DNA of 64,000 bases, taken from assembly GCA_900317935.1 (NCBI GenBank), contig ONIU01000005.1:1726-65725 (forward strand). Reading direction: 5' to 3'. Position 1 is the stretch's first letter. Each line of letters starts with the position of its first letter. Of the stretch, positions 22,143 to 64,000 are shown in pieces. The notes below the pieces were generated by a model, which was not told the DNA's origin, ran no database searches, and saw only the letters and a program-made list of their open reading frames with translations. A program made the position numbers and the translations under genes. This stretch comes from an uncultured bacterium. Lineage in GTDB: Bacteria > Muiribacteriota > Ozemobacteria > Ozemobacterales > Ozemobacteraceae.

Positions 22143-23546
22143 ATGAAAAAGCATTGGTTATACTTAATTTTAGGTTTGGCATTAATTATAAACAGTAGTT
22201 GTGCTGTTAATGCCCAGGATGATGAAGGCGGCTGGTGGGATGTTAGTTCCGAAAGTGATGTAACAATAGATGAAGCATTAGAAACTAAGCCTACAAGCAC
22301 TTCAGAAAGCTCTGAAGAAGCTAAAGATACTGAAAAATCTGAAGAAACAGAAAATAAAGAAGAAGAAAAACAGGTTATAACTTATACTGTAGTTCCAGGT
22401 GATACCCTTTGTTCTATAGCTTTAAGATATCTTGGAAGTGCAAGTAGATATCCTGAAATAGCTGCTCTTAATCCAGAACTTATTTCTGACCCAAATGTTA
22501 TTCTTACAGGTTGGAATTTAAAAATTCAATTGGATGGCGCTGCTCCTGCTGAAGAAGCTGCCGCTGCTGATCCAGAACCTGAAGTTGAAGTTACAGATGA
22601 ATCTTCTGAAAGCAGCGAAGTTGCTGAACCAGAAGAAGAAAAGACAAATGCAGAAAAAATAGCTGAACTTCAGAAAGTTTTAGATGAAGCAAATGGTAAA
22701 TTACCAGAAGGTTTTGGACTTGTAGATTTCAATGGTAATACTGTTAAATATTTAGTAGAAAAAGGTATTATTTCTAAGGAAGAATTAGCTGCTCTTAGTC
22801 CAGCAGATGAACATACCTGGAGAATTAATAACGGTAAGATTGAACTTGTTAATGCGAAAAATGTAGCTTTAACTCCAGAAGAAATTGCTGCATTAGATGC
22901 TGCAAATGCTGCCAAGAAAAATGGTGAAGAAGACGCTGAAAAGATGGGACTTGCCCAAAGAATTGGTAAAATGATTGATGAAGGCGTCGAAAAAGTTGGC
23001 GAAGGCCTTAAGAAAGGCGTCGAAGGCCTTAAGAAAGGCGTCGAAACCGTTGGTGAAGGAATTAAGAAAGGCGTCGAAACCGTTGGTGAAGGAATTAAGA
23101 AAGGCGTCGAAACCGTTGGTGAAGGTGTTAAGAAAGGTGTCGAAACAGTTGGAAAAGGTCTTAAGACTTTCGGTAATTGGCTAAATGATCGTATTGAATA
23201 TAATAGAGTTACAAGAGTCGCCAGAGCTCAGAATGCTTTAGATACTCTTGTTACTACTGGTAAGGTTGTAACTGCACCAGTTAGAGCTCTTGGTAGCGGG
23301 CTTGTAAGTGGAATTAAGGGATTCTTTGTTGGTGGCGAAGATAACGGTTTTGTAAACGGAGCAAAAAAAGTATTTGATGACACTATAGAATCTGCAGCTG
23401 GATTAAAAGATCGTCGTCAGGAAAGAATTGATAATGCATTAGAAAAAGCAAATTATGGTGGTTCTACTACTCACACTAGTTCTAGTGGCACAACTCATGG
23501 CGGCAGCGGTCGTTCATTCGGCGGTGGCGGTGGACATCGTTTTTAA
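22143..23546 (+). CDS. Secreted LysM-domain protein with 11-aa tandem repeats and Gly-rich C-terminus
   Basis: 467 aa with GAGGTG RBS and a signal peptide. LysM motif (YTVVPGDTLCSIALRYLG...YPEIAALNP). GVETVGEGIKK repeats. Terminal GGSGRSFGGGGGHRF. Confidence 0.8.
   Translation: MKKHWLYLILGLALIINSSCAVNAQDDEGGWWDVSSESDVTIDEALETKPTSTSESSEEAKDTEKSEETENKEEEKQVITYTVVPGDTLCSIALRYLGSASRYPEIAALNPELISDPNVILTGWNLKIQLDGAAPAEEAAAADPEPEVEVTDESSESSEVAEPEEEKTNAEKIAELQKVLDEANGKLPEGFGLVDFNGNTVKYLVEKGIISKEELAALSPADEHTWRINNGKIELVNAKNVALTPEEIAALDAANAAKKNGEEDAEKMGLAQRIGKMIDEGVEKVGEGLKKGVEGLKKGVETVGEGIKKGVETVGEGIKKGVETVGEGVKKGVETVGKGLKTFGNWLNDRIEYNRVTRVARAQNALDTLVTTGKVVTAPVRALGSGLVSGIKGFFVGGEDNGFVNGAKKVFDDTIESAAGLKDRRQERIDNALEKANYGGSTTHTSSSGTTHGGSGRSFGGGGGHRF
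22983..23168 (+). repeat. In-frame 33-bp tandem repeat inside the LysM gene
   Basis: Units start at 22983, (21-bp partial) 23016, 23037, 23070, 23103 and 23136. Units 23037-23069 and 23070-23102 are identical. Confidence 0.85.
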
Positions 23547-35518: not shown

Positions 35519-35603
35519 TATAACCTCCAGATTTTTGTTTATTATACAATATTTGAGAGATATCGCAAGGTTTTTGTTTAATGTTTTAGATGTATGATAT
35601 AAG

Positions 35604-35837
35604 AGTTGGAAGTGTTGGAAGGGTTAGAAGTGTTGGAAGGGTTGGAAGTGTTGGAATGGTTAGATGTCTTAGAAGTGTTGGAAGTGTTGGAAGAGTTAGA
35701 AGAGTTGGAAGGGTTGGAAGTGTTGGAAGGGTTGGAAGAGTTGGAAGTGTTGGAAGGGTTGGAAGTGTTGGAAGGGTTAGAAGTGTTGGAATGGTTAGAA
35801 GTGTTGGAAGGGTTGGAAGGGTAGGAAGGGTTAGAAA
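35604..35837. repeat. 26-unit 9-bp tandem repeat (consensus NGTTGGAAG)
   Basis: Counted unit by unit from 35604. Variants are GTTAGAAG, GTTGGAAT and GTAGGAAG. Flanked by ATAAG on the left and GTAACGCTTTGCTGTG on the right, the same flanks that bracket the 4-5 unit tract inside M2 modules. Confidence 0.9.
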
Positions 35838-35865
35838 TGTAACGCTTTGCTGTGTCTTCTAAAGC

Positions 35866-35883
35866 CCCTCCTTGAGGAGGGGA
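35866..35883. repeat. GC-rich hairpin CCCCTCC-TTGA-GGAGGGG
   Basis: 7-bp perfect stem immediately after the 9-mer tract, 75 nt downstream of the stop of the helicase gene on the opposite strand. Confidence 0.6.
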
Positions 35884-39836: not shown

Positions 39837-39960
39837 ATTTGGGTGCAATATATTTATTGAGCAGATATCATACCTTTTATTTCTCAATAAAACAATAGTC
39901 TAGGAAAATTTGTTTTGGATGTTTTTTGTAAAAGTTTCACTGTTTTGTTATTAAAATCCC

Positions 39961-40420
39961 GCTTAATCCCCATTTAAGAAAGGGGTAATTATAACAGCTG
40001 ACTGACGACCAACAGGATGTTGGGAGTGCAAGCGAGCGCCAGGATGTCAAGCGAGTCGTAGGGGGCATAAAGCTTCGCAGTGTTACGCTTCTCTGTGGGA
40101 CTCTTCGTTGTGGGACAGCAGCATAACGACTTGTGGGAATTGTTATAAGGGTGAGAAGGGTTGGAAGGGTTGGAAGGGTTAGAAGTGGAACGCTGCGGTG
40201 TGGTACACTTCGTTGTGGGACGTTTCACTGTGGTTATTGTCGAACAACTCCCACAGGCAGCGTTAGCTGCAGTCTCACAAGTTGTGTTAGCAACAGTCCC
40301 ACAGAGGCTTTAGCCTCGTTCCACCAACCACCAATATCTCCATCTTAGGTCTTGTGTCTCAAGTTCTGGTCTTATATCTCCATCTTTGGTCTTGTATCTC
40401 AATTTTAATGGCTCTTGATT
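39961..40420 (+). repeat. Composite intergenic repeat locus R4 (degenerate M1 + M2 + short tandem tracts)
   Basis: Direct repeat AGGATGT..CAAGCGAG x2 (40014-40056). M2 at 40069-40325, nearly identical to 41735-42006. Then a CCACCAACCACC / GGTCTTGT(A/G)TCTC tract to about 40410. Confidence 0.85.
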
Positions 40421-40467
40421 TTAACTTTACAAAATAATAGAATAACAATAATTAAGGAGAGCAAATC

Positions 40468-41514
40468 ATGGGTTTCACTTCAAAAATAATATATAAAGCA
40501 TTGGAAACAGGTTTTATTCCAGACAGAATCACTAAACTCTGGATGAAATATCTATGTTATAGAACAATAAAGAACGCAAAACTAGATAATATTGAAGCTA
40601 GAAATTCTGTGTTCAGACAAATAAGAAGCGATTTGCTAAATGGCTCAGAAATTAGAAAATATTATTTTACCGAAAGAAACTCTATTGATTTCCCCCTTAC
40701 TTTTTACGATTATTTTTTGGGGAAAAATCTCAGTCTTACTTGTGGTTATTTCTCTACTGGTGCAGAAGACCTCAATGAGGCTGAAGATACTGCTTTATGG
40801 CTTGCCTCTGAACACGCAAGAATCAGAGAAGGTATGAGTATTTTAGAAATCGGTTGCGGAGCAGGTGCATTCTCTTTCTGGCTTGCGAATAAATATCCTA
40901 GCTGCAAGATAACTGCGTTAACTCCTTCCCCCAAAATGCTTTCCAATCTCAGAAAAAAAGCTCAAGAACTTGATATTAACAATATTAACTTTATCAGTCA
41001 GGAAATTAAAGATTTTACTGATGCAGATAAATTCGATAGAGTAATCTGTCTTGAAAGATTCGACTTATTAGCTTCTCTTGGTAATTGGGAAAAAAGGGTA
41101 AAGAAGCTCTTAAATAAAGACGGAATGTTTTTCATGACCGCCAGAGTTCATTCTTCTACTGCATTTTATGAAGATTCCACTGGTTTTGATAATATGCCCG
41201 GAAATAACGTAATTGAAGATGTTATTATTCCTTCTGTAAAAAGCTTGATGTTGACTACACCAGATTTACATCTTGTTGATATGTGGGAAATCAGCGGACT
41301 TCATTATAAGCAGACTGCCGATAAATGGTTCAGAAAATTTACTTTTAATAAAGAACCTATTTTAAGGGCCTTAGAAAAAGCTTACGGTAGTGATAAAGCT
41401 CATAGCTGGTATAACAAAATGAGACTTTACATATTAAGTCTATACGAAAGATATGGTTATAATCATGGGCAGGAATGGATAACCGCCCAGTATCTCTATT
41501 CGCCTTCTAAGTAA
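40468..41514 (+). CDS. Cyclopropane-fatty-acyl-phospholipid synthase-like SAM methyltransferase
   Basis: 348 aa with AAGGAGA RBS. CMAS-type region FYDYFLGKNLSLTCGYF...LNEAEDTAL and SAM motif ILEIGCGAGAFSFWLA. Confidence 0.75.
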   Translation: MGFTSKIIYKALETGFIPDRITKLWMKYLCYRTIKNAKLDNIEARNSVFRQIRSDLLNGSEIRKYYFTERNSIDFPLTFYDYFLGKNLSLTCGYFSTGAEDLNEAEDTALWLASEHARIREGMSILEIGCGAGAFSFWLANKYPSCKITALTPSPKMLSNLRKKAQELDINNINFISQEIKDFTDADKFDRVICLERFDLLASLGNWEKRVKKLLNKDGMFFMTARVHSSTAFYEDSTGFDNMPGNNVIEDVIIPSVKSLMLTTPDLHLVDMWEISGLHYKQTADKWFRKFTFNKEPILRALEKAYGSDKAHSWYNKMRLYILSLYERYGYNHGQEWITAQYLYSPSK

Positions 41515-41540
41515 CCCACCACACTATGCTGGCTACGCCA

Positions 41541-41734
41541 GTAAGACCCCTTTCGGTTCCTGTGGAACCACTTTCCCAGCAATGCTATCGCATTCTGGGG
41601 GCAGATCGTTTTCTCAAAGAAGCGCCCCCAGTTTTGCAATTAGAGATGGCGACGTAGTGATCATCCATCCCGATGCTCCCCCAGAGTTTGAAAAACTGCT
41701 GGGGGAGCTGTCACGAAGTGACTGAGGGGGTCTT
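41541..41734 (+). repeat. Intergenic structured module M1, long copy
   Basis: Complementary AAGACCCC (41543-41550) and GGGGTCTT (41727-41734). Hairpins GGTTCC/GGAACC (41555-41569), AATGC/GCATT (41581-41594) and GTCAC/GTGAC (41710-41722). GAAGCGCCCCCAG core with a duplicated CCCCCAG. Confidence 0.85.
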
Positions 41735-42006
41735 AAAGCTTCGCAGTGTTACGCTTCGTTGTGGGACAGCAGCATAACTACTTGTGGGAATTGTTATAAG
41801 AGTGAGAAGGGTTGGAAGGGTTGGAAGGGTTAGAAGTGGAACGCTGCGCTGTGGGACACTTCGTTGTGGGACGGCTGTTTACAGCCTGTGGTAATAGTCA
41901 ACAACAAACACAGGCAGCGTTAGCTGCCGTCTCACAAGTTGTGTTAGCGACAGTCTCACAAGTTGCGTCAGCAACAGTCCCACAGAGGCTTTAGCCTCGT
42001 CCCACC
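41735..42006 (+). repeat. Intergenic palindromic module M2 (TGTGGGAC iterons / GTCYCACA + hairpins), full copy
   Basis: Left arm has YTGTGGGA(C/A) x5 around a 4-unit GGTTGGAAG tract. Right arm has GTCTCACA, GTCTCACA, GTCCCACA, each followed by a 5-6 bp stem hairpin (GGCAGC/GCTGCC, GTTGC/GCAAC, GAGGC/GCCTC). Confidence 0.9.
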
Positions 42007-42012
42007 TACTTC

Positions 42013-42630
42013 TCACCTGCTAGGTGGTTTATCAATATACATCAGGCCGCTTGAATATAAATCTTTGAAGGTAACGATACCTTTTCCTTTTAAAACATCA
42101 AAGAAGTTCAGCAGTAGAACTTTGACTGCTTCTGTATCGTTCATAGCTCTATGAGCATCAACAAGATTATAGCCAAAATATTTTGCAGAATTTTCAAGCT
42201 TGTTTGACGGTAGTTTTAAAAGTTTCCTAGATAAATTAAGTGTGCAGAGCGATGGCGATTTATAGTCGATTCCAAGACATTCTTTAAAGAAATATTCAAA
42301 AAAAGACCAGTCGAAAGGCACATTATGAGATACAAATATATTGTTTTTCAGCATATTATGAAGAACAGGTGCTAATTCGCTGATAGTTGGAGAATCCTTA
42401 ACCATTTCGTCTGTTATATGCGTTATGTTTGTTATTTCTTCAGGAATATGACATTCAGGGTTTACAAAGGATTCAAATCTTTCTTCTTTTCCATCTTCGT
42501 ATAGAATTATTGCAACTTCTGTTATTTTTGCCGGTCCTGGTTTGAAGCCGGTGGTTTCTAAGTCTAATATAGCATAAGGAAGTTTTGAAATTTCGGTGTT
42601 TATATACTTATCAATAAAAGAGTTATTCAT
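42013..42630 (-). CDS. DnaQ-like 3'-5' exonuclease (DEDDh family)
   Basis: 205 aa. Exo I AILDLETTG, Exo II FVSHNVPFDWSF and Exo III HRAMNDTEA. Confidence 0.8.
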   Translation of the reverse strand: MNNSFIDKYINTEISKLPYAILDLETTGFKPGPAKITEVAIILYEDGKEERFESFVNPECHIPEEITNITHITDEMVKDSPTISELAPVLHNMLKNNIFVSHNVPFDWSFFEYFFKECLGIDYKSPSLCTLNLSRKLLKLPSNKLENSAKYFGYNLVDAHRAMNDTEAVKVLLLNFFDVLKGKGIVTFKDLYSSGLMYIDKPPSR

Positions 42631-42751
42631 TGGTGCCTGCTTTAATCTTGTTTAATTTACTCCATTATAACATAATGTAATATAAAAAGATTCTTTTATT
42701 ACGAAGAATAATTATCTGTTATAAAAGTTTCTAATGATGAGAATTTACTAA

Positions 42752-44107
42752 CTAATTGTTGGATATAGATCCTAGTTTACCTTTTTTCTTAAGAATAAAG
42801 CAAAGAATGGCGATGGCAAAAGCGGTAATAGCTAAGCTTACCGGGTATGATTGCATTATTGTTGTAAAAGTAGGAGACTTTTTGAAGATTGTATTAACCC
42901 AGGCTATTCTAATTCCACATATACATATTAGACTTATTAATGCGGGGCCTAGTGATTGACCAAATCCTCTAAGCAGACCAGATAAAATATCCTGAATGAT
43001 TGAGAAAATAAATGCAAAAGCTAACCAATAAAGCCTGATATAGCCTATTTCTATTACTTCAGCATCTTTGCAGAATAAACCAAGAAGTTCTTTGTAATAT
43101 ATAAGCATTAAACTTGCTGCAATTGTTGTGAATAAATAACTGTAGCCCATGCAGATATACATTGATTTTCGGCATCTATCATATTTATGTGCTCCATTAT
43201 TCTGCCCTACAAAGGTGGTGCAGGTCTGCCCGAAGGAAGATAGAACAAAGAATGCAAATATTTCTACATTTAGAGCTGCTGCAGAACCAGCCATAACAGT
43301 TGCCCCAAGACTATTTATAGATGATTGAATAACAAGATTTGATAATGCAAACATCATAGACTGTATTCCTGCTGGAATACCTATTCTCAATATACGTATA
43401 AGAGTAGGTTTAGTTATTTTAAGCTGTCCAAAATCAACATGAACATCGGAATCAGACTTTGCTAAACCATTAAGTAAATAGAGTGAACTGATTATATTAG
43501 CAGTTACTGTTGCAATAGCTACTCCGTCAACACTCATTCCACCACCGCAAACAAGGGCAATATTAAGAATCACATTTGTTATTCCAGATATAACTAAGGC
43601 TGTTAATGGAGTTTTTGTGTCGCCAATCGCTCTGTATATTGCAGCTTCAAAGTTATAAAGCAATATAACTGGCATTCCAAGTAGATAAATTCTTAAATAA
43701 AGAGTGGCAAGTTTTAAACATTCTTCTGGAACAGACATCCAGTTTAAAATATAACCCGCTGCGAATTCTCCAAAAATGGCTAGAAGAACACCGCAAATAG
43801 CAGAGGTATATATGGAAGTATGAACACATTTTCTTATTCGGCTTTCATCTTTAGCGCCTATGGCATTGGCTAATACAACGTTTGTTCCAAGAGAGATTCC
43901 GATGAAAAGGTTAATTAAAAGGCTTATTACAGGAGCGTTGCTTCCAACCGCAGCCATAGCATGAGGGCCTCTGAATTGGCCGACTACTGCTAAGTCTGCT
44001 GCATTGAAAAGCTGTTGCAGTATTCCTGTTATGGCTAATGGAATGGCATAAAAAAGAATTTTATCCCACAGAGAGCCGTTAAGCATGTCTATTTTTTTGC
44101 CAGCCAT
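42752..44107 (-). CDS. MATE family efflux transporter
   Basis: 451 aa with 12 predicted TM helices and a typical MATE N-terminus (LWDKILFYAIPLAITGILQQLFNAADLAVVG). Confidence 0.9.
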   Translation of the reverse strand: MAGKKIDMLNGSLWDKILFYAIPLAITGILQQLFNAADLAVVGQFRGPHAMAAVGSNAPVISLLINLFIGISLGTNVVLANAIGAKDESRIRKCVHTSIYTSAICGVLLAIFGEFAAGYILNWMSVPEECLKLATLYLRIYLLGMPVILLYNFEAAIYRAIGDTKTPLTALVISGITNVILNIALVCGGGMSVDGVAIATVTANIISSLYLLNGLAKSDSDVHVDFGQLKITKPTLIRILRIGIPAGIQSMMFALSNLVIQSSINSLGATVMAGSAAALNVEIFAFFVLSSFGQTCTTFVGQNNGAHKYDRCRKSMYICMGYSYLFTTIAASLMLIYYKELLGLFCKDAEVIEIGYIRLYWLAFAFIFSIIQDILSGLLRGFGQSLGPALISLICICGIRIAWVNTIFKKSPTFTTIMQSYPVSLAITAFAIAILCFILKKKGKLGSISNN

Positions 44108-44171
44108 TTTTTTACCTTTAAAAATTTAGTAGTTATTTTATTAAGCCGTTTATTCGTAATTGTCAAGATTT

Positions 44172-44556
44172 CTAAAAGAAGAAGCGCCCAAAGCGAGACT
44201 GAGATGGCTTTAAAGTAGTGGAATGCTTTGCTGTGATACACTTCGTTGTGTGACAGCAGCATAACTGCTTGTGGGAATTGTTATAAGAGTTAGAAGGGTT
44301 GGAAGGGTTTAAAAGAATGAAGTGTAACGCTGCGCTGTGGGACACTTCGTTGTGGGACGGCTGTTTACAGCCTGTGGTAATAGTCAACAACAAACACAGG
44401 CAGCGTTAGCTGCCGTCTCTCAATTTGCGTCAGCAACAGTCCCACAGAGGCTTTAGCCTCGTCTCACCATCTGACAACCGAGGGCAGATCGTTTTTCCCC
44501 GAAGCGCCCCCAGTTTAGCAATTTGAGCTGTCAGCTTGCTGACTGAGGGGGTCTTC
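44172..44556 (+). repeat. Composite intergenic repeat locus R6 (degenerate M1 - M2 - short M1)
   Basis: GAAGAAGCGCCC at 44178. M2 at 44212-44468. Short M1 at 44480-44555 with a GTCAG/CTGAC hairpin (44530-44543) and a GAGGGGGTCTT end. Lies in the divergent promoter region between the MATE gene and the first channel gene. Confidence 0.85.
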
Positions 44557-44646
44557 TCTTTATCCAAATAAATAACTTAAATTTCTGAGCAAAATAATAT
44601 ACAATACTGACAAATTTATAATTCATACTCATAAAAGGAAATTGCT

Positions 44647-46389
44647 ATGAAAAATATCAAGTCAAACTTAGTTTTAATCATTATTTTCGTTGAAATTTTC
44701 CTCGTTATGGGTATTACCTTTATCGTTAAAACTCTAAATTATGAAGATTATACCGAGAAAAAATTTATAGATAAAACTACTCAGGTTTTGAAAGAAACGG
44801 CTTCAGGTAAAGATGTTGATGCAATTATAGAAGAGGGTGGGGCTAAATTTAATAAACTTCTTACAACTCTTGATATTGCTCAAAACAGTTTTGCTTTTGC
44901 TATAGACTCAAATCTTAAAATTAAGATGTATAACAAAACTAAGGAAGAATTCAGCAAAGCTCTTGATATTTCCATGTTTCCTCAATTAAAGGAAGTAAAC
45001 ACATTAGCTTTTTATGTTTCTAAACGCCAATCAAGTAATTTTGAGTATTTTTCCGAATCTAGCAAAGAAAAACTAATATACTTTGTAGAGCCTGTTCCGA
45101 ACTCTAAGTGGGTATTGGTTGTCAGTGTCTTAAAAGACAGCATTGTCATGAAAACGGTTACAGAAAAAAGATACTTTTTTTGTGGTATAGCATGCTGTAT
45201 TTTTGCTTTAACAATGACTGCCGCTTTCTTCGGTTGGGTTCTTCCTAAGGATATAAAAAATAAATTCTGGTATTCAGCTTCTTTTATTTCTTTAGGTCTT
45301 TCTGTTGGAATTAGTATTTTATGCGTTTTCAGCAATAAGTATCATGATTACGAAAACCCAGAAGAAATTTCTTTGACTGACCAGAACATAATTGATGGCT
45401 TTCTAGATAAGTTTGATAATCAACTTGTTGAAGAAGGAAACAGCAGAATAAACAGAGTCAGAGTAGGGGTTTTCTTAAAAAATCTTGATTTTGAATCCAG
45501 CACAAAGGTTAATTTTTCCGGTTATTTGTGGCAAAAATTAGATAAAGACCAGTTGGGAAAGATAAAAGAAGGCTTTTATTTTGCTGACTCCTTTAAAAGC
45601 AAGTTTCATAAACTTCATGAAAAAGAAAATTCTGATGGAAGCAAGATATTTGTCTGGTATTTTACTTGTCTTGTGAGCTGTGATTTGGCTGAGAACAAAC
45701 TTTATCCATTTGATGTAGAATCAGTAAGTTTAAGACTGAGTTCTTCTGATTTTGGGAATAATGTAATACTTGTTCCTGATATTAGAGATTATGTTGATAT
45801 TGAGCCTTATTCGAAACCAGGAATCTATAATAACCTTACTATACCAGGCTGGAATGTTTCTGAAAGTTATTTCACTTATTTAAAGGAAAACTATAACTCT
45901 ACTTTTGGGGTTTTTCAGTCTCATACTGGCGGGTCACTTAATAACGAACTTTATTTTAAAGTAATTCTCAGAAGGTCTTTCTTAGGTTCTTTCATAAGTA
46001 TATTCCTGCCAATATTCGTTACAATGGTCATGATGTTTATTCTTCTATTAACTTGTTCCAGCGATGAAGAAAGATCAAAGAAACTTGGTTTCTCTGCAGG
46101 GGCTATATTAGCCAGCACTGCCGCGTTATTCTTTGTTGTTATCGTTGCTCAGATTGACTTAAGAGACAAGGTTGCTGCTAATGGGCTTATATATATGGAT
46201 ATTTACTATTTCGTAACCTATTTGATGTTTATGATAGTTAGCATTGATTCAATTCTGCTTTGCTGGCCTGATAAATTCAAATGGATAATCTGGGAAGACA
46301 ATATTATTGTTAAAAGCCTGTTCTGGCCAGTTGCTACTTCTATTATTTTCCTGTCTACCTTGGTTTATTATTTCCCAAGCGGTATATGA
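44647..46389 (+). CDS. Pentameric ligand-gated ion channel (pLGIC/Cys-loop superfamily) homolog with N-terminal TM-sensor-TM module, paralog 1
   Basis: 580 aa. The C-terminal roughly 350 aa show VRVGVFLKNLDFESSTKVNFSGYLWQKL (beta1-2), LYPFDVESVSLRL (Cys-loop-equivalent YPFD), ILRRSFLGSFISIFLPIFV (M1), ERSKKLGFSAGAILASTAALFFVV (M2), YMDIYYFVTY (M3) and a C-terminal M4. The N-terminal roughly 230 aa are TM, a roughly 150-aa extracytoplasmic domain, then two TM helices. Confidence 0.75.
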   Translation: MKNIKSNLVLIIIFVEIFLVMGITFIVKTLNYEDYTEKKFIDKTTQVLKETASGKDVDAIIEEGGAKFNKLLTTLDIAQNSFAFAIDSNLKIKMYNKTKEEFSKALDISMFPQLKEVNTLAFYVSKRQSSNFEYFSESSKEKLIYFVEPVPNSKWVLVVSVLKDSIVMKTVTEKRYFFCGIACCIFALTMTAAFFGWVLPKDIKNKFWYSASFISLGLSVGISILCVFSNKYHDYENPEEISLTDQNIIDGFLDKFDNQLVEEGNSRINRVRVGVFLKNLDFESSTKVNFSGYLWQKLDKDQLGKIKEGFYFADSFKSKFHKLHEKENSDGSKIFVWYFTCLVSCDLAENKLYPFDVESVSLRLSSSDFGNNVILVPDIRDYVDIEPYSKPGIYNNLTIPGWNVSESYFTYLKENYNSTFGVFQSHTGGSLNNELYFKVILRRSFLGSFISIFLPIFVTMVMMFILLLTCSSDEERSKKLGFSAGAILASTAALFFVVIVAQIDLRDKVAANGLIYMDIYYFVTYLMFMIVSIDSILLCWPDKFKWIIWEDNIIVKSLFWPVATSIIFLSTLVYYFPSGI

Positions 46390-46489: not shown

Positions 46490-48229
46490 ATGAAAAATAT
46501 TAAAACCAGTATTGCTATACCAATTATTTTTATCTGGTTGTTTCTTGTTCTTGGAATAACCCTGATAGTAAAAACTGTTAATTATGAAAGTTATACAGAA
46601 TTAAAGTTTATAGATAAAACTACTAAAACTTTACAGAAAACTGTTTCTGAAAAAGGCTTAAATGAAATCATCGACGAAGGCGGAGCTAAATTCAATAAGC
46701 TTTTGACAAAGCTTGATATAGCGCAGAACTCTTTTGCATTAGCTATTGATTCTGATAAAAAGATTAAAATCTATAATAAAACCAAGGCAGAAGTCAGTGA
46801 ATCCCTGGATATTTCAATATTCCCTCATTTAAAAGATAACAAAGAACTAATTGATCTGGTAACTAAACATCAATCCGGGCACTTTGAATTCATTTCAAAT
46901 ACAAGCAAGGAAAAATTATATTGTTTTGTAGAAGCTGTTCCGAGCTCTAAATGGTGCTTAGTAGTTACTGTTTTAAAAGATAGTATTGTTATGAAGACAA
47001 TTAAGGAAAAACGATACTATTTTTCTGGTATAGCCTGCTGCATTATATCTTTTACTATGTTGATTACATTGCTGGGTTGGCTTTTCCCTAAAAATATAAA
47101 AAATAAATTCTGGTATTCTTCCTCATTGTTTTCTATAGTTCTTGCTTTGGGAATAAGCATGCTTTGTGTTTTCAGCAACAAATTTAATGACTATGAAAGC
47201 CCTCAGGAAATCTCTTTAACAGACCAGAACATTATCGAAGGTTTCCTTGATAAATATGACAATCAGTTGGCTGAAGAAGGTAATGGACAAATAAATAGAG
47301 TTAAAGTAGGTATTTTCCTTAAGAATATTGATTTCGAATCAAGCACAAAGGTAAATTATAGCGGTTATCTTTGGGAAAAGCTTACCAAAGAACAGGTTGG
47401 AAACATAGAACCTGGTTTATATTTTTCTGATTCATTTAAAAGTAAATTTCAGCAGTTATATGAAAAGGATAATCCTGACGGCAGCAAAGTCTACGTCTGG
47501 TATTTTGAGTGCCGTCTAAGCGCTGACTTGCAGGAGAAAAAGCTTTATCCTTTTGATGTAGAAGCAGTAAAAGTCAGACTTCGCTCAAGGGATTTCGGAA
47601 ACAATGTTATTCTTGTGCCTGATACCAAGGATTATGTTGATGTAGAACCTCATGCAAAACCTGGAATATATAACCAGATGACAATTCCAGGCTGGAATAT
47701 TTCTGAAAGCTTTTTTACTTATTTAAAAGAACAATATGATTCAACTTTTGGTGTGTTCCACTCTCATACAGGAAGTATAGTTTATACTGAACTCTATTTT
47801 AACGTTATATTGAGACGTTCATTTTTAGGTTCATTTATTAGTATATTCCTGCCTATATTCGTAACTTTAGTCATGATTTTTATTCTGCTTCTCACCTGTT
47901 CCAATGATGAGGAAAGGTCGAAGCATCTTGGTTTCTCTGCAGGAGCTATATTAGCCAGCACAGCTGCATTATTCTTCGTTGTAATCGTAGCTCAGATTGA
48001 TTTAAGAGATAAAGTGGCGGCCGATGGCCTGATTTACATGGATATTTATTATTTTGTAACTTACTTTGAATTTATGCTTGTCAGCATTAACTCTATTTTG
48101 ATGTGCTGGCCAGATAAGTTTAAATGGGTTGCCTGGGAAGACAATATCTTGGTAAAAAGCACTTTCTGGCCAATAGTTACATCTATAATATTTATAGCTA
48201 CGCTATTTTATTACTTCCCAAGAATCTAG
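46490..48229 (+). CDS. pLGIC homolog with N-terminal TM-sensor-TM module, paralog 2
   Basis: 579 aa, colinear with 44647..46389 over the full length. The pore region is nearly identical and the N-terminal sensor region is more diverged. Confidence 0.75.
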   Translation: MKNIKTSIAIPIIFIWLFLVLGITLIVKTVNYESYTELKFIDKTTKTLQKTVSEKGLNEIIDEGGAKFNKLLTKLDIAQNSFALAIDSDKKIKIYNKTKAEVSESLDISIFPHLKDNKELIDLVTKHQSGHFEFISNTSKEKLYCFVEAVPSSKWCLVVTVLKDSIVMKTIKEKRYYFSGIACCIISFTMLITLLGWLFPKNIKNKFWYSSSLFSIVLALGISMLCVFSNKFNDYESPQEISLTDQNIIEGFLDKYDNQLAEEGNGQINRVKVGIFLKNIDFESSTKVNYSGYLWEKLTKEQVGNIEPGLYFSDSFKSKFQQLYEKDNPDGSKVYVWYFECRLSADLQEKKLYPFDVEAVKVRLRSRDFGNNVILVPDTKDYVDVEPHAKPGIYNQMTIPGWNISESFFTYLKEQYDSTFGVFHSHTGSIVYTELYFNVILRRSFLGSFISIFLPIFVTLVMIFILLLTCSNDEERSKHLGFSAGAILASTAALFFVVIVAQIDLRDKVAADGLIYMDIYYFVTYFEFMLVSINSILMCWPDKFKWVAWEDNILVKSTFWPIVTSIIFIATLFYYFPRI

Positions 48230-50747: not shown

Positions 50748-51110
50748 TCTTCTAACTTGAAACTCGTAACTTGTAACTAAGTGTTACGCTTCGCTGTGGG
50801 ACACTTCGTTGTGAGACAGCTGTTTACAGCCTGTGGAAATAGACAACAATAAACACGGACAGCTTTAGCTGCCGTCTCACAGATTGCTCGCAATCGTCTC
50901 ACAGAGGCTTTAGCCTCGTTCCACTGTCTAAATATCGAGGTCAGAACTTTTTACTCGAAGAAGCGCCCCTAAAATGCCTTCGGCATTGCTGGGGGAGCTG
51001 TCACGTAGTGACTGAGGGGGTCTTTAAGATAATTCTAAATTCTCACTCACTACCTATCACCCACCACTAAACTTGTAACTTGTAACTTAAAACTTAAAAC
51101 TTATATCTAA
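50748..51110 (+). repeat. Composite intergenic repeat locus R7 (heptamer tract - short M2 - short M1 - tracts)
   Basis: CTTGTAAC-type tract at 50748-50780. M2 without the 9-mer tract at 50781-50924. M1 at 50937-51024 with AATGCC/GGCATT (50973-50987) and GTCAC/GTGAC (51000-51012). CACC and AACTTGT/AACTTAA tracts extend to about 51110. Confidence 0.85.
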
Positions 51111-51211: not shown

Positions 51212-51739
51212 ATGAATAATTTTTTTCACGGTTTAAAGGATTGGTTTGGCGACTTCGTTAAAGCACTAATTTTCTTTTTGTTGCTTCAGACTTATGTTGC
51301 ACAAGGTTTCGTAATTGAAGGTTCATGTATGGAACCCGAACTGCATTCACACGAGAAAATAATGGTTAATAAGATGATTTATCGTGTGAAAGAACCAGAG
51401 GTTGGGGAAATTGTAGTTTTCAGATATCCATATGAGCCTGGCAAAGATTTTGTAAAGCGTGTAGTTGGCGTTCCTGGAGATGTAATAGCTATAAAAGACG
51501 GCTATTTATACAGAAATGGCAAAAAAATGAATGAATCATTCGTCAAGGAATACGTTTTCGGAACCTATGGTCCTTTGAAAGTTCCCGATGGCAAATTATG
51601 CGTTATGGGAGATAATAGAAATAATTCTCATGACAGCAGAGCCTGGGGTTTACTTGATAGAAATATGGTAAAAGGTAGAGCCGACATTCGTTTTTGGCCC
51701 GTTAAGCAAATAGGTTTAATTCCCGTAAGAAAAGACTGA
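51212..51739 (+). CDS. lepB: Signal peptidase I
   Basis: 175 aa. GSCMEPEL (Ser box), KRVVGVPGD (Lys box) and GDNRNNSHDSR (box E). GGTGGAG RBS. Confidence 0.9.
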   Translation: MNNFFHGLKDWFGDFVKALIFFLLLQTYVAQGFVIEGSCMEPELHSHEKIMVNKMIYRVKEPEVGEIVVFRYPYEPGKDFVKRVVGVPGDVIAIKDGYLYRNGKKMNESFVKEYVFGTYGPLKVPDGKLCVMGDNRNNSHDSRAWGLLDRNMVKGRADIRFWPVKQIGLIPVRKD

Positions 51740-51746
51740 TTAGTAA

Positions 51747-51893
51747 GATATAAGATTTAAGATATAAGATATAAGAAATAAGATATAAGATTTAAGATAT
51801 AAGATATAAGAAATAAGATATAAGATTTAAGATATAAGATATAAGATGTAAGAAATAAGTTTGAAGAAGATAGATAAGCTTTAAGCTATAAGC
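51747..51893. repeat. Heptamer tandem array (GATATAA family), 35-bp higher-order period
   Basis: 16 clean units at 51747-51858 in the pattern [GATATAA GATTTAA GATATAA GATATAA GAAATAA] x3.2, then 5 degenerate units to 51893. Starts 8 nt after the lepB stop. Confidence 0.9.
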
Positions 51894-53195: not shown

Positions 53196-53765
53196 AGATT
53201 AAGTTACAAGACACAAGTTATAAGATTCAAGTTACAGATTAAAATCTTATGTCTCCATCTATGGACTTGTATCTCAATTTTTGGTCTTAAATATTACAAC
53301 AACTAACACGGGCAGCTTTACCTGCCGTCTCACAGATTGCGTTTGCAATCGTCCCACAGAGGCCTTAGCCTCGTATCACCTTCATCTTATAATCTTGTAT
53401 CTTGTAACTTATGACTTGTAACTTATAACTTATAACTAAAGGTCTCTCGTCAGCTGTCCTTAAAATTCACAACTACCACTACTCACTTATATCACTAATC
53501 ACTAATCACTTATCACTTATCACTAATCTTATATCTTCTATCTTATATCTTGTAACTTGTAACTTGTAACTTGTAACTAAGTGTTACGCTTCGCTGTGGG
53601 ACACTTCGTTGTGGGACGTTTCACTGTGGTAATAGTCAACAACTAACACGGGCAGCTTTAGTTGCCGTCTCACAGATTGCGTCAGCAATCGTCCAACAGA
53701 GGCTTTAGCCTCGTATCACCTACCACCAACCACTCACCACTTACCACTTACCACTTACCACCTAC
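53196..53765 (+). repeat. Composite intergenic repeat locus R9 (tracts - M2 right half - about 200 bp heptamer tracts - short M2 - CCACTTA tract)
   Basis: M2 right half at 53293-53380. Heptamer tracts at 53381-53580 (CTTGTAA, CTTATAA, ATCACTA/ATCACTT, CTTATAT). Short M2 at 53581-53720. (CCACTTA)n tract at 53721-53765. Confidence 0.85.
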
Positions 53766-55614: not shown

Positions 55615-55705
55615 ATAAAAATTATATCACAATCTCTATATGTTTTTAAATATTTTTAATTAGATTGAAGAAAAAAGATTGAATGGTGATGAGTGGCGGG
55701 GTGTA

Positions 55706-55734
55706 TTGATTTTTAATTTTAGTTGTGTTAATAT
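55706..55734 (+). promoter_or_regulatory. Putative sigma70-type promoter of fadD-like gene 1
   Basis: TTGATT (55706-55711), 17 nt, TAATAT (55729-55734), with TG at -15/-14. The -10 block TTGTGTTAA(T/C)ATC is conserved upstream of the paralog. Confidence 0.45.
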
Positions 55735-55759
55735 CCAACCACTTTTGTTAGGAGATTTT

Positions 55760-57382
55760 ATGGAAAAATTTTGGTACAAAAACTATGACAAGGGTGTAAA
55801 TCCAGAAATTAACTTTTCTGAGTTGCCTATGACTTTTACCGATGTGATAAAAAAAGCTGCTGGCTTATATGAAAATCATATTGCATTAAAAGACGATAAT
55901 GTTAAGTATACATATAAAGAATTAGACAATATTACTTCTAAAATAGCAGGAAATTTGAGACTATTTGGGATTGAAAAGCAAGACAAAGTTTGTGTTATTC
56001 TTCCTAATTGTATAGAAACAGTTCTTTCTTTTTGGAGTATTGCTAGAGCTGGAATAGTCGGGGTAATGACTAATCCTCTTTATTCAGAAACTGAATTGAC
56101 TCACCAAATAAACGATTCTGATGCGAAAACAATTATTACAAATGACTTTATCTTACCGAAGATTAAAGCAGTTCTTTCACGATTAGCAATAAAAAAAGTT
56201 TTTGTTGTAAAAGTAAAAGATTCTGTGAATGAAGTTATTTATGATAAGGTTATTCGTCCTTGGGAAGAATTATTAGTAAATAATCGTGGTTATGATTGTG
56301 ATTCTATAGACCCTTATAATGATTTGGCTTTGTTACAGTATACAGGCGGAACTACCGGTATATCTAAAGGCTGTATGCTTACCCCCAGCAATCTAATATG
56401 TAATGCCTATCAATATGAACAGATATTCATGGGCATTTTGAAATATGGTGAAGAAAAGATAGTCGGTGTTCTTCCATGGTTTCATATTTATGGTTTACAG
56501 ATGGCTGTATTGTTCCCAATTATTATAGGTGCTACTATATATCCAATGATTAGATTTTCACCAAGAAGTCTTTTAAGTCTGATTCAGAATGAAAAGATAA
56601 CCTGTATGCCTTCGGCACCTTCTATTTTTAGTGCTTGTTTAGGGCAAAAAGAAATCGATAGCTACGATTTAACAAGCATAAAACTTGTTATTTCTGGTTC
56701 TGCTCCTTTGCCATTAGCTTTAATTGAATCATTTGAAAAACGCACTGGTGCAACAATATCCGAAGGTTATGGTTTAAGTGAAGCATCTCCTGTTACACAC
56801 TTTTCTCCATTGTTCCCAAAAGAAAGAAAGCTTGGTTCAATTGGGCTTCCATTGCCTTCAACTGATTCTAAGATTGTTGACGTTGAATATGGTGTTAAAG
56901 AACTTGGCGTAGGTCAAAATGGTGAACTTTGTATTCGTGGACCTCAGGTTATGAAAGGCTACTATAAACAGCCTACAGCTACTGAAGAAGTTTTGGTTGA
57001 TGGTTGGTTACATACTGGCGATATCGCTTATTACGATAAAGAAGGCTATGTATATATAACCGATAGAAAGAAAGATCTGATTATTTGTGGTGGTTATAAC
57101 GTATATCCTCGTGAAGTTGAAGAAGTTCTTTATAAGCACCCATTGGTTAGTGAAGCTTGTGTTGTTGGTATAAATGAGCAAATTAGAGGTGAAGCCGTCA
57201 AAGCTTTCATAGTTACTAAAGAAAATCAGAAAGTCGATAAGAAAGACATTATTAGTTTCTGTAGAAAGAATCTTGCTACTTATAAGATTCCTAGAGATAT
57301 TGAATTCTTGGATGCTTTACCAAAATCTGCTGTAGGTAAGATATTAAGAAGAGAACTTCGCGATAGAACTAATAAGAAGTAA
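55760..57382 (+). CDS. fadD: Long-chain-fatty-acid--CoA ligase (AMP-binding enzyme), copy 1
   Basis: Start moved from 55679 to ATG 55760 (AGGAG RBS; matches the paralog N-terminus MEKFWYKNYDKGV). Motifs YTGGTTGISKG, GYGLSE, GWLHTGD and PKSAVGKILRREL. Confidence 0.9.
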   Translation: MEKFWYKNYDKGVNPEINFSELPMTFTDVIKKAAGLYENHIALKDDNVKYTYKELDNITSKIAGNLRLFGIEKQDKVCVILPNCIETVLSFWSIARAGIVGVMTNPLYSETELTHQINDSDAKTIITNDFILPKIKAVLSRLAIKKVFVVKVKDSVNEVIYDKVIRPWEELLVNNRGYDCDSIDPYNDLALLQYTGGTTGISKGCMLTPSNLICNAYQYEQIFMGILKYGEEKIVGVLPWFHIYGLQMAVLFPIIIGATIYPMIRFSPRSLLSLIQNEKITCMPSAPSIFSACLGQKEIDSYDLTSIKLVISGSAPLPLALIESFEKRTGATISEGYGLSEASPVTHFSPLFPKERKLGSIGLPLPSTDSKIVDVEYGVKELGVGQNGELCIRGPQVMKGYYKQPTATEEVLVDGWLHTGDIAYYDKEGYVYITDRKKDLIICGGYNVYPREVEEVLYKHPLVSEACVVGINEQIRGEAVKAFIVTKENQKVDKKDIISFCRKNLATYKIPRDIEFLDALPKSAVGKILRRELRDRTNKK

Positions 57383-57489: not shown

Positions 57490-59106
57490 ATGGAAAAATT
57501 TTGGTATAAAAACTATGACAAGGGCGTTAATCCAGAAATTAACTTTTCTGAATTGCCTATGACTTTCCCTGACGTCTTAAGAAAAGCCGTCTCTGAATAT
57601 GGTGATAAAATAGCTGTAAAAAGTGATAATACTCAAATTACATATAAAGAATTTGATAGACTTACATCTAAAATTGCTGGAAATTTAAGACTTTTCGGTA
57701 TTGATAAACAAGAAAAGGTTTGTATTTTTCTTCCTAACTGTTTTGAAACTGTTTTGTCTTTCTGGAGTGTAGAAAGAGCTGGTATCTGTGGTGTAATGAC
57801 CAACCCGCTTTATTCTGAATCAGAACTTATTCATCAAATTACAGATTCTGATGCTAAGGCTGTTATTACTTCAGATACTTTACTTGCAAAAATTAAAGCA
57901 ATACTTCCTTCTGTTTCTTTAAAACATGTTTTTGTTGTTCCCCTTGGTGACATTAAAATTGATTTTGACAATGTAATTCATCCTTGGGAAGATTTATTGG
58001 CTGAAAACCGTGGCTTTGAAGCAGATAACATCGACCCATACAATGATTTGGCACTTTTGCAGTATACAGGCGGAACTACTGGTATATCAAAGGGCTGTAT
58101 GCTTACACAAAGCAATTTGATTTGCAATGCCTATCAATATAAAGAAATGTTTATGGTTATATTGAAATATGGTGAAGAAAAAATTGCTGGTGTTTTACCC
58201 TGGTTCCATATTTATGGCTTACAGTTGGGTGTTATACTCCCATTTATTATTGGTGCTACAATTTATCCATTGATTCGTTTTACTCCTAGAGCTTTGCTTT
58301 CTATGATTAATGACGAAAAGATAACTTGTATGCCTTCTGCTCCTTCTATTTTCAGTGCTTGTCTTGCTCAAAAGGAAATAGACTCTTATGATTTAACCAG
58401 TTTGAAACTTTTGATTTCTGGTTCTGCTCCTTTACCATTAGCTTTAATAGAAGCTTTTGAAAAGAAAACTGGGGCAAAGATTTCTGAAGGTTATGGTTTA
58501 AGTGAAGCTTCACCAGTTACTCATTTCTCACCAGTATTCCCTAAAGAAAGAAAACTTGGTTCAATCGGTTTGGCAATACCATCAACTGATATTAAAATTG
58601 TTGATGTTGAATATGGTGTTAAAGAATTGGGCGTTGGTCAGAATGGTGAACTTTGCATACGTGGTCCTCAGGTAATGAAAGGTTATTATAAACAGCCTGC
58701 AGCTACTGAAGATGTTCTTGTAGATGGTTGGTTACATACTGGTGATATAGCAAACTATGACAAAGATGGTTATGTCTATATTACCGACAGAAAGAAAGAC
58801 CTCATTATTTGCGGTGGATATAACGTTTACCCAAGAGAAGTTGAAGAAGTTCTTTACAAACATCCTATGGTTGCAGAAGCCTGTGTTGTTGGCGTAAAAG
58901 ATGCTGTTCGCGGTGAAGCAGTAAAAGCTTATATTGTAACCAAAGAAAATCAGGAAGTAGATAAGAAGGATATCGTAGGTTTCTGTCGTAAAAATCTTGC
59001 TAACTACAAGATTCCTAAAGATATCGAATTCCTTGATGCTTTGCCGAAATCAGCTGTAGGTAAAATATTGAGAAGAGAACTTCGCGATAGAGCAAATAAA
59101 CAATAA
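57490..59106 (+). CDS. fadD: Long-chain-fatty-acid--CoA ligase (AMP-binding enzyme), copy 2
   Basis: 538 aa, colinear and highly similar to copy 1, with GAGGAG RBS. Confidence 0.9.
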   Translation: MEKFWYKNYDKGVNPEINFSELPMTFPDVLRKAVSEYGDKIAVKSDNTQITYKEFDRLTSKIAGNLRLFGIDKQEKVCIFLPNCFETVLSFWSVERAGICGVMTNPLYSESELIHQITDSDAKAVITSDTLLAKIKAILPSVSLKHVFVVPLGDIKIDFDNVIHPWEDLLAENRGFEADNIDPYNDLALLQYTGGTTGISKGCMLTQSNLICNAYQYKEMFMVILKYGEEKIAGVLPWFHIYGLQLGVILPFIIGATIYPLIRFTPRALLSMINDEKITCMPSAPSIFSACLAQKEIDSYDLTSLKLLISGSAPLPLALIEAFEKKTGAKISEGYGLSEASPVTHFSPVFPKERKLGSIGLAIPSTDIKIVDVEYGVKELGVGQNGELCIRGPQVMKGYYKQPAATEDVLVDGWLHTGDIANYDKDGYVYITDRKKDLIICGGYNVYPREVEEVLYKHPMVAEACVVGVKDAVRGEAVKAYIVTKENQEVDKKDIVGFCRKNLANYKIPKDIEFLDALPKSAVGKILRRELRDRANKQ

Positions 59107-63837: not shown

Positions 63838-64000
63838 TTAATGTTGTGGGACGGCTGTTTACTGCTTGTGGAAATAGTAATCAATTCACACAAGCAGCTA
63901 TGCTGCTGTCCCACAACGTAGTGTCTCACAGCGCAGCGTATCACTTTTAACCCTTCCAACTCTTCTCACCCTTCTAACCCTTCTCACAATTATAACTGAA
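63838..64000 (-). repeat. M2-family module in inverted orientation, rearranged, runs off window
   Basis: GTTGTGGGAC (63843-63852) and GTCCCACAAC (63908-63917) form the outer stem; CTGCTTGTG (63862-63870) and CACAAGCAG (63889-63897) form the inner stem. Then the reverse complement of ACGCTGCGCTGTG.GAC and of a 5-unit GGTT(G/A)GAAG tract. Confidence 0.85.

Follow-up and report, generated by a model that had tools for sequence, protein, structure and literature searches.

The M2 repeats of an uncultured Candidatus Riflebacteria lineage are best read, with a probability of roughly 60%, as a lineage-specific, interspersed, non-coding and non-autonomous DNA repeat family of the same kind as the repetitive extragenic palindromic (REP) sequences, bacterial interspersed mosaic elements (BIMEs) and BOX elements. 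The analysis started from a large imperfect palindrome at positions 41735-42006 of a 64,000-nucleotide stretch of contig ONIU01000005.1 (assembly GCA_900317935.1), hereafter the window. M2 is neither a gene nor a conserved regulatory RNA. It is a new family, closest in behaviour to REP and its doublet form REPIN or to BIME and BOX, yet it lacks defining features of each.

Counted over both strands of the window, the left-arm word of M2, TGTGGGAC, is present 17 times where 0.42 would be expected, a number matched by none of 100 shuffled sequences, and TGTGGGA occurs 27 times, against 4.4 expected. Every TGTGGGAC lies in an intergenic spacer between 40.0 and 64.0 kb. The window copies were recovered by repeat finding, by nhmmer and by a covariance model, and these searches together with inspection of the sequence confirmed all seven copies that the original prediction had listed.

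The M2 core is 143 nt long, and 23 distinct full-length cores could be aligned with a mean identity of 85%. It comprises two inverted arrays of the 8-mer GTCYCACA with a central hairpin between them, and its consensus reads AAGTGnnAC-GCTnCGC-TGTGGGAC-ACTTCGT-TGTGGGAC-GTTTCAC-[TGTGGTAATTGT..ACAAyTACCACA]-GGCAGCGTCAGCTGCC-GTCTCACA-GATTGCGnnAGCAATC-GTCCCACA-GAGGCTTTAGCCTC-GTATCACC. Units within one arm share an orientation and the inversion takes place once, at the centre; each DNA strand is thus built as 5'-(TGTGGGAC-spacer)n - central hairpin - (hairpin-GTCYCACA)n-3', with the same grammar on both. Long forms are extended on the left by an extra TGTGGGAC-hairpin-TGTGGGAA block together with a 9-mer tandem array, and short, half and variant forms are also seen. 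The outermost 8-mers (AGTGnnAC / GTnnCACC) are the most variable positions of the alignment, and the termini are not sharply conserved.

The 8-mer is otherwise strongly conserved and the spacers between 8-mers are variable in sequence, with quantised lengths. A survey of all successive GTCYCACA pairs (at most one mismatch) in the same orientation on either strand gave spacers of 7 nt (n = 144), 14 nt (n = 18), 15 nt (n = 23) and 16 nt (n = 73), with almost none of any other length. Each class corresponds to a hairpin: a 2-bp stem with a 3-nt loop (7 nt), a 5-bp stem with a 4-nt loop (14 nt), a 6-bp stem with a 3-nt loop, TAT (15 nt), and a 6-bp stem with a 4-nt loop (16 nt). The left-arm spacers, which had been taken for plain linkers, are in fact minimal hairpins on the opposite strand. 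The left-arm motifs, described in the original prediction as 16-20 bp apart, recur every 15 or 23 nt, counted between their starts, with spacers of 7 or 15 nt; in the right arm the intervals are 24, 24 and 22 nt.

The loops of these hairpins are strand-specific. On the GTCYCACA strand, 28 of the 47 distinct 16-nt spacers have the form C-GNNA-G and 0 of 47 have its complement C-TNNC-G, and the exact GCGNNAGC core forms the apex in 24. Half of the distinct 7-nt spacers (8/16) read N-C-GNA-G-N', again with no case of the complement (0/16); three of the 16 are GCGNAGC (GCGAAGC, GCGCAGC and GCGTAGC), further C-GNA-G spacers are ACGAAGT and ACGTAGT, and GTGAAAC retains the inner pair as T-A. Conservation is highest at the closing C-G pair and the G and A of the loop, and lowest at the middle loop bases. 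Both GCGNAGC and GCGNNAGC are published, by Hirao and co-workers, as ‘mini-hairpin DNA’ of extraordinary stability, in which a C-G pair closes a loop that holds a sheared G-A pair; the folded strand is characterised by exceptional thermal stability and by resistance to nucleases or SSB, and natural sites of the motifs include single-stranded phage and plasmid origins, N4 promoters and single-stranded DNA (ssDNA) priming sites (PMC13037366). The GCGNAGC and GCGNNAGC spacers of M2 match these motifs exactly, and the bases conserved in M2 are those that the published structure uses. Two differences remain: the published natural cases are single sites and not a genome-wide repeat family, and the M2 motif is known from sequence.

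In the left arm the favourable GNA and GNNA loops fall on the minus strand, and in the right arm on the plus strand. A single transcript therefore cannot carry both sets, which points to DNA rather than RNA as the folded molecule. This bears directly on the suggestion that M2 is a structured non-coding RNA, such as a cis-regulatory element, an mRNA stabiliser or terminator, or a small RNA, folded into a rod of 8-bp helices with side hairpins. The predicted fold is indeed strong. As RNA, the core reaches -69.7 kcal/mol (z = -7.1 against shuffled sequence), RNAalifold returns nested 8-bp helices that pair left with right 8-mers and carry side hairpins, and in 19 of 23 copies G-U pairs give the plus strand a slightly better fold than the minus strand. 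Folded as DNA, the core gives z = -8.4. Most of the tetraloops are GNYA and not GNRA, the type favoured in RNA.

The orientation and surroundings of M2 also speak against an RNA element. Relative to the 3' end of the upstream gene, M2 lies in sense 25 times and antisense 24 times, by rough gene calls based on open reading frames (ORFs), and all four configurations of flanking genes occur. Its orientation against the guanine-cytosine (GC) skew of the contig (20 vs 13) is uninformative. Terminator-like and promoter-like sites occur only at shuffle level, no T-runs follow the M2 hairpins, and Rfam gave no match at gathering score in the window and only chance-level matches at E <= 1 in 39900-44650. 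These data show no link between M2 and the direction of transcription or replication. Module number varies, and the element is absent from close relatives. Taken with the opposite-strand loops, these results make an RNA function very unlikely.

Covariation was counted for an explicit 57-pair structure on the 23-copy alignment, with 500 shuffles. Changes on both sides of a pair were found in 22 cells, against 12.4 ± 3.0 in the shuffled alignments, of which 0/500 reached 22. They are located in the three large local hairpins, the outer terminal helix and a single pair, 41-56; within the local hairpins, for example, one pair is G-C 13 times and A-U 8 times, and another A-U 16 times and G-C 5 times. 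The two long-range 8-mer helices and the central stem showed none. In the 47 distinct 16-nt spacers, each of stem positions 2-6 forms a Watson-Crick pair in at least 94% of cases and draws on two or three pair types. Since the spacer stems vary and still pair while the 8-mer helices do not covary, the hairpins are constrained as structures and the 8-mer as a sequence. The original prediction had allowed for pairing both within local hairpins and between the arms; covariation supports the former and not the long-range 8-mer helices. Of its two general readings, that of a protein-binding or REPIN-like DNA repeat is supported, and that of a long structured RNA is disfavoured by the lack of both orientation bias and long-range covariation.

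Copies of M2 are not confined to the window. A metagenome scan with a 23-mer of the left arm found 87 loci, nearly all with a GC content of 31-43% and several 84-98% identical to the window. After overlapping loci were merged, at least 57 distinct genomic regions of close relatives carry M2. All copies are intergenic, and many lie at contig ends, as expected of repeats that break assemblies. The 18-mer ACAGAGGCYTTAGCCTCG gave only 10 single chance matches, in unrelated taxa, among GTDB species genomes. BLAST with M2 found no copy in plasmid and phage collections, and the viral contigs yielded two chance matches in coding sequence of unrelated contigs (one of ~50% GC), with none found there by the covariance model. 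In the literature, the 8-mer turned up only in unrelated primer sequences.

M2 sites are polymorphic, both in presence or absence and in module number. At the site orthologous to 41735, L016 holds a short form where the window has a long one, and L098 and L054 have an additional module. Exactly one 24-nt unit is missing from L098. In L051 (84-89% identical) the element is absent at the position of the 50781 copy and present ~300 nt further on within that spacer, past another heptamer array. The more distant L106 and L107 keep the helicase-ankyrin-methyltransferase-RNase T synteny and have no M2; the two spacers that measure 581 and 499 bp in the window are short there, at 124 and 142 bp. Four further relatives (L115-L122, 166 kb; UvrC 95, 87, 82 and 67% identical) contain no M2 and zero TGTG[GA]GAC, and one of their orthologous spacers measures 31 bp against 677 bp in the window. 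M2 is present in L105, whose methyltransferase is 80% identical. The copies most similar to those in the window stand at unrelated loci, with 85-91% identity, which indicates dispersal and not local duplication alone. Strain-level turnover, combined with absence from sister species, shows M2 to be a recent expansion in a narrow clade.

This turnover has to be weighed against the view that M2 is protein-binding or structural DNA used by the host, as a nucleoid, gyrase or IHF-type array or as an SSB-resistant single-strand initiation or priming signal, and kept for its usefulness and not its mobility. Strong conservation of the 8-mer over variable spacers would suit such a role, as would the many copies between convergent genes and the presence of mini-hairpin motifs at known ssDNA priming and promoter sites (PMC13037366). 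We nevertheless regard it as unlikely, given that M2 is missing from sister species with the same gene order, comes and goes between near-identical strains, is highly variable in module content and is unevenly spread, with seven copies within 24 kb of the window and none in its first 38 kb.

If M2 is a mobile DNA repeat of the REP kind, the following mechanism may be envisaged. M2 would act at the DNA level, its hairpins forming in single-stranded or extruded DNA. The 8-mer and its hairpin would together make up the recognition unit for a trans-acting protein that copies or recombines M2, the leading candidate, by analogy, being an HUH/RAYT-like nuclease (RAYT, REP-associated tyrosine transposase). 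Unequal recombination or slippage between the repeated 8-mers may then add and remove modules. M2 is probably recognised as folded ssDNA by a protein acting in trans.

Several observations weigh against this account. In ~600 kb of clade sequence, tblastn with IS200, IS608 and YafM queries found no transposase, RAYT or other HUH protein; the best match to an HUH query (E = 0.037) is a zeta-toxin-like P-loop kinase. No cognate binding protein was identified in the available sequence, the only one of the refuting outcomes named in the original prediction that was observed. Across 30 aligned flanks there was no target-site duplication. Stem mismatches show no strand signal (G-T vs A-C, 8 vs 5). 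In palindromes, templated repair or gene conversion can produce apparent compensatory changes even in the absence of selection, and the copies, drawn from several related strains, are not independent of one another. Folding of M2 ssDNA in vivo is itself a prediction from sequence. Finally, the sole near-isogenic case of presence and absence looks like an allelic recombination tract and not a clean insertion. In L110, which is 99.97% identical to the window over 10 kb, the 53578-53720 copy is missing, 49 nt stand in place of 245 nt, and the divergent tract runs ~45 nt into an amidohydrolase gene.

The L110 site also speaks for an origin that needs no dedicated enzyme. Slippage, template switching and homologous recombination, in a genome with many short tandem repeats in its spacers, would then have left M2 as a minisatellite-like by-product, spread by recombination between strains only. 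The 7-mer and 9-mer tandem arrays in which M2 is embedded vary between strains, and modules change by whole units, as in the 24-nt unit of L098. Slippage, however, cannot account for dispersal, for the inverted two-arm architecture or for the conserved loop-closing bases, and copies 85-91% similar stand at many unrelated loci. We consider this origin highly improbable.

A search around M2 for a protein that might move it gave ordinary genes. No clean empty site was found, joined left and right flank queries matching only short tandem repeats. The genes bracketed by M2 are ordinary (for example, a ROK kinase in L033) and include no full-length element or DDE transposase. The multi-copy proteins near M2 are FGE-sulfatase paralogs and three paralogous Rpn/YhgA-like PD-(D/E)XK genes (PF04754 and PF12784; ‘Transposase_31’ / PDDEXK_2), the latter 80-530 nt from an M2 array: L045 696-1583, L047 631-1677 and L058 1797-2727 (= L084 1517-2455). 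In L058, a partial duplicate of the C-terminal 68 codons of the gene lies just downstream. The loci having been selected for M2, these neighbours are a lead only. They would fit a more specific and doubtful proposal, that M2 is the substrate of an undescribed ssDNA-hairpin system in which an 8-nt word alternates with GCGNAGC or GCGNNAGC and the mover is not a RAYT, a candidate being the Rpn/YhgA-like ‘Transposase_31’ protein.

Movement in trans on double-stranded DNA offers another explanation, in which M2 is a miniature inverted-repeat transposable element (MITE), that is, the collapsed ends of a DDE transposon with several transposase sites. The ends of Tn7, Mu and IS21 carry several transposase-binding sites, and the two inverted arrays of a conserved 8-mer starting with TGTG resemble such multi-site ends; the copies are dispersed and polymorphic, as those of a MITE would be. 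M2 nevertheless has neither of the two MITE features, conserved tips of terminal inverted repeats and a target-site duplication, and its outermost motifs are the least conserved. The binding word is merely 8 nt long, spacing in the two arms is unequal (15 vs 24 nt), hairpin spacers and strand-specific loops are not required by double-stranded binding sites, and no full-length element or DDE transposase is bounded by M2. A MITE is therefore an improbable description of the family.

Among known repeat systems, REP and REPIN sequences are mobilised by RAYTs, which are Y1 HUH transposases similar to those of IS200/IS605 (PMC3116915, PMC3337134). M2 resembles them as a many-copy family of short, intergenic, imperfect palindromes, with a conserved short word beside a hairpin of variable stem, lineage-specific inheritance in a narrow clade and presumed recognition as an ssDNA hairpin. 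Its inverted arrays around a central hairpin recall a REPIN in part, each arm of M2 being a tandem array of 2-4 word-and-hairpin units where a REPIN has two single inverted REPs. It differs in its flanking word, which is GTCYCACA and not GTAG at the 5' foot of the palindrome, and in its hairpins, which are much smaller (2-6 bp) and have GNA or GNNA loops. The RAYT of REP systems is usually single-copy and flanked by REPs; in ~600 kb of clade sequence the IS200, IS608 and YafM queries gave no credible match.

The BIMEs of enterobacteria share with M2 a mosaic, modular organisation of palindromic clusters, few linker types or quantised linker lengths, and an intergenic position, in many cases past a gene's 3' end. 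Within BIMEs each REP is inverted relative to the next, whereas M2 units have the same orientation within an arm, and there is no sequence similarity. BOX elements of Streptococcus pneumoniae are organised as boxA-(boxB)n-boxC (PMC3049150). M2 likewise has fixed outer modules, variable internal units and fold-back complementarity, an architectural resemblance only, and is dispersed between genes without a transposase of its own. BOX modules are 45-59 bp long and not an 8-mer with a hairpin, are thought to act partly through transcripts, and belong to an unrelated host phylum.

Further classes of element were rejected. CRISPR arrays consist of identical repeats of 23-50 nt with unique spacers, usually next to cas genes; the repeated word of M2 has 8 nt, its ‘spacers’ are palindromes of a few classes, and no cas genes lie nearby. 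Integron attC sites have R''/L''...L'/R' boxes with a GTTRRRY core and lie between co-oriented promoterless cassettes. M2 has no GTTRRRY core, and its flanks are housekeeping genes on both strands that keep their synteny in relatives without M2, which speaks against an integron attC or CALIN array. Plasmid-type iterons and DnaA boxes were ruled out on anatomy.

The copy at 41735-42006 (plus strand) is a long form recovered by nhmmer, with a covariance-model match at 41834-42006 (140 bits). It lies between the 3' ends of two convergent genes, assigned by Pfam to an S-adenosylmethionine (SAM) methyltransferase (40468-41514, plus strand) and an RNase T-like exonuclease (42013-42630, minus strand). 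Its outer left array (41760-41790, plus strand) consists of TGTGGGAC (41760-67), the 15-nt hairpin spacer AGCAGCATAACTACT and TGTGGGAA (41783-90). An internal 9-mer tandem array follows at 41800-41836 (plus strand), made of GAGAAGGGT / TGGAAGGGT units and sharing its unit with a large array at 35565-35870. The inner left array, GCTGCGC - TGTGGGAC - ACTTCGT - TGTGGGAC (41843-41872, plus strand), has 7-nt spacers that read GCGCAGC and ACGAAGT on the minus strand, both C-GNA-G mini-hairpins. At 41873-41912 (plus strand), a hairpin GGCTG-TTTA-CAGCC precedes the central hairpin TGTGG...CACA, which is degenerate in this copy and has an 11-12-bp stem, TGTGGTAATTGT/ACAATTACCACA, in others.

The right array occupies 41913-42006 (plus strand). 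Its first half is composed of GGCAGC-GTTA-GCTGCC, GTCTCACA, AGTTGT-GTTA-GCGACA and GTCTCACA, and its second half of AGTTGC-GTCA-GCAACA, GTCCCACA, GAGGC-TTTA-GCCTC and GTCCCACC. A base-by-base check found the hairpins GGCAGC-GTTA-GCTGCC, GTTGC-GTCA-GCAAC and GAGGC-TTTA-GCCTC all present as originally described, and the same holds for the stem GCCTGTG/CACAGGC (41884-41890 / 41909-41915) and for the G-T wobble in GGCAGC/GTTGCC (53651-53666).

Two other long copies, both on the plus strand and recovered by nhmmer and the covariance model, occupy divergent spacers: 40069-40325 (153 bits), between an ankyrin-repeat gene (minus strand) and the methyltransferase gene (plus strand), and 44212-44468 (148 bits), between a MatE gene (minus strand) and an ORF at 44647 (plus strand). 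The plus-strand copy at 50778-50925 is a short, core-only form with an (ACTTGTA)n heptamer array on its 5' side, found by nhmmer and the covariance model. At 53295-53380 (plus strand) only the right half is present, as a central hairpin remnant and right array (nhmmer model positions 66-151), and the covariance model identified a second short copy at 53578-53720 (plus strand).

The remaining copy, at 63838-63996, lies between a DUF4340 gene and a 23S rRNA promoter region just past the window. It has one TGTGGGAC and a central hairpin, followed by a second arm of GTCCCACA-ACGTAGT-GTCTCACA-GCGCAGC-GTATCAC with an inverted 9-mer array. The original prediction called it inverted; it is not a plain inversion, the first 56 nt aligning directly with 41863-41918. 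Its second arm corresponds, once reverse-complemented, to an array of the left-arm type (15-, 7- and 7-nt spacers) plus the 9-mer array, and this copy is therefore a differently assembled variant. Its GCTTGTG/CACAAGC stem (63864-63870 / 63889-63895) does show the C:G to T:A change that had been read as compensatory, which as a single case is anecdotal. Just past window position 64000, contig L110 (11530-11808) has a strong promoter-like sequence, TTGACT-17-TAAGAT, followed by the 5' end of a 23S rRNA gene, with no 16S gene upstream of that start within the contig. Contigs of several assemblies terminate in this 23S rRNA 5' region.

Other repeats accompany M2. A second, GC-rich module, GAAGCGCCCCCAG...CTGGGGGAGCTGTCAC-GAA/GTA-GTGACTGAGGGGGTC, lies beside M2 copies at 41618-41733, 44476-44553 and 50930-51016, and contains a hairpin, GTCAC-GNA-GTGAC, whose triloop is C-GNA-G as in M2; the mini-hairpin design is thus common to several repeat families of this genome. 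A third module, AAGACCCCTTTCGGTTCC...GGAACCACTTTCCC, is found at 41545-41600 of the window and in L080 (~10058-10120), right after M2, and is absent in L041, which has the same left flank and the same M2 as L080. Repeat modules thus seem to insert beside one another.

Tandem arrays are a further component of these spacers. The large 9-mer array at 35565-35870, (GTTGGAAGG)n, whose unit also occurs in the array inside long M2 copies, is hypervariable: the window and the 99.65%-identical contig L011 differ almost solely in this array. Heptamer arrays (TAAGATA, ACTTGTA/ATCTTAT, CACTTAC) flank M2 at 51716-51890, 53392-53580 and 53720-53762. Before the left edge of short M2 copies stand arrays of the ACTTGTA type, and after the right edge arrays of the TACCACC type, the latter resembling hairpin-less iterations of the terminal GTATCACC word.

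The window has a GC content of ~33%, and its genes are ordinary chromosomal ones (UvrC, SpeA, ankyrin protein, SAM methyltransferase, RNase T-like exonuclease, MatE, signal peptidase, acyl-CoA ligases and a GldG-like ABC system). A protein labelled at NCBI as “MAG: Candidatus Riflebacteria bacterium” shares 99% identity with the UvrC of the window, and several ENA and Logan metagenome assemblies hold contigs near-identical to the window. In the relatives L117-L120, UvrC is followed directly by a 287-residue ORF, SpoU, signal peptidase and DUF2225. In the window, ~47 kb (4056-51212) separate UvrC from the SpoU/signal peptidase/DUF2225 block, a large rearrangement or insertion whose right boundary is the M2-rich region. 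Two tandem gene duplications were noted, one encoding proteins of 580 and 579 residues without a Pfam match (44647-46389 / 46490-48229, DNA 69-76% identical) and one encoding AMP-binding ligases (55679-57382 / 57490-59106), of which L117-L120 have a single ligase. ORFs at 4784-7642 and 22143-23546 contain internal 15-nt and 33-nt tandem repeats and encode Lys/Pro/Glu-rich and KKGVE-type repeat proteins.

Interspersed palindromic repeats such as REP, BIME, BOX and Correia elements shape genome plasticity, mRNA stability and assembly quality and, to our knowledge, have been studied almost exclusively in Proteobacteria and Firmicutes. M2 extends them to the candidate phylum Riflebacteria, where it ends contigs in several assemblies of the lineage and so limits the quality of metagenome-assembled genomes. 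Its grammar, an 8-nt word with a hairpin of quantised length, is unusually explicit. Across its many natural copies, M2 also conserves the very bases by which extraordinarily stable DNA mini-hairpins are defined, and the idea that folded ssDNA serves as a recognition signal thereby becomes testable. Should M2 prove to be the substrate of an undescribed ssDNA-hairpin system, mini-hairpin DNA would for the first time be seen as the basis of a natural, genome-wide family.

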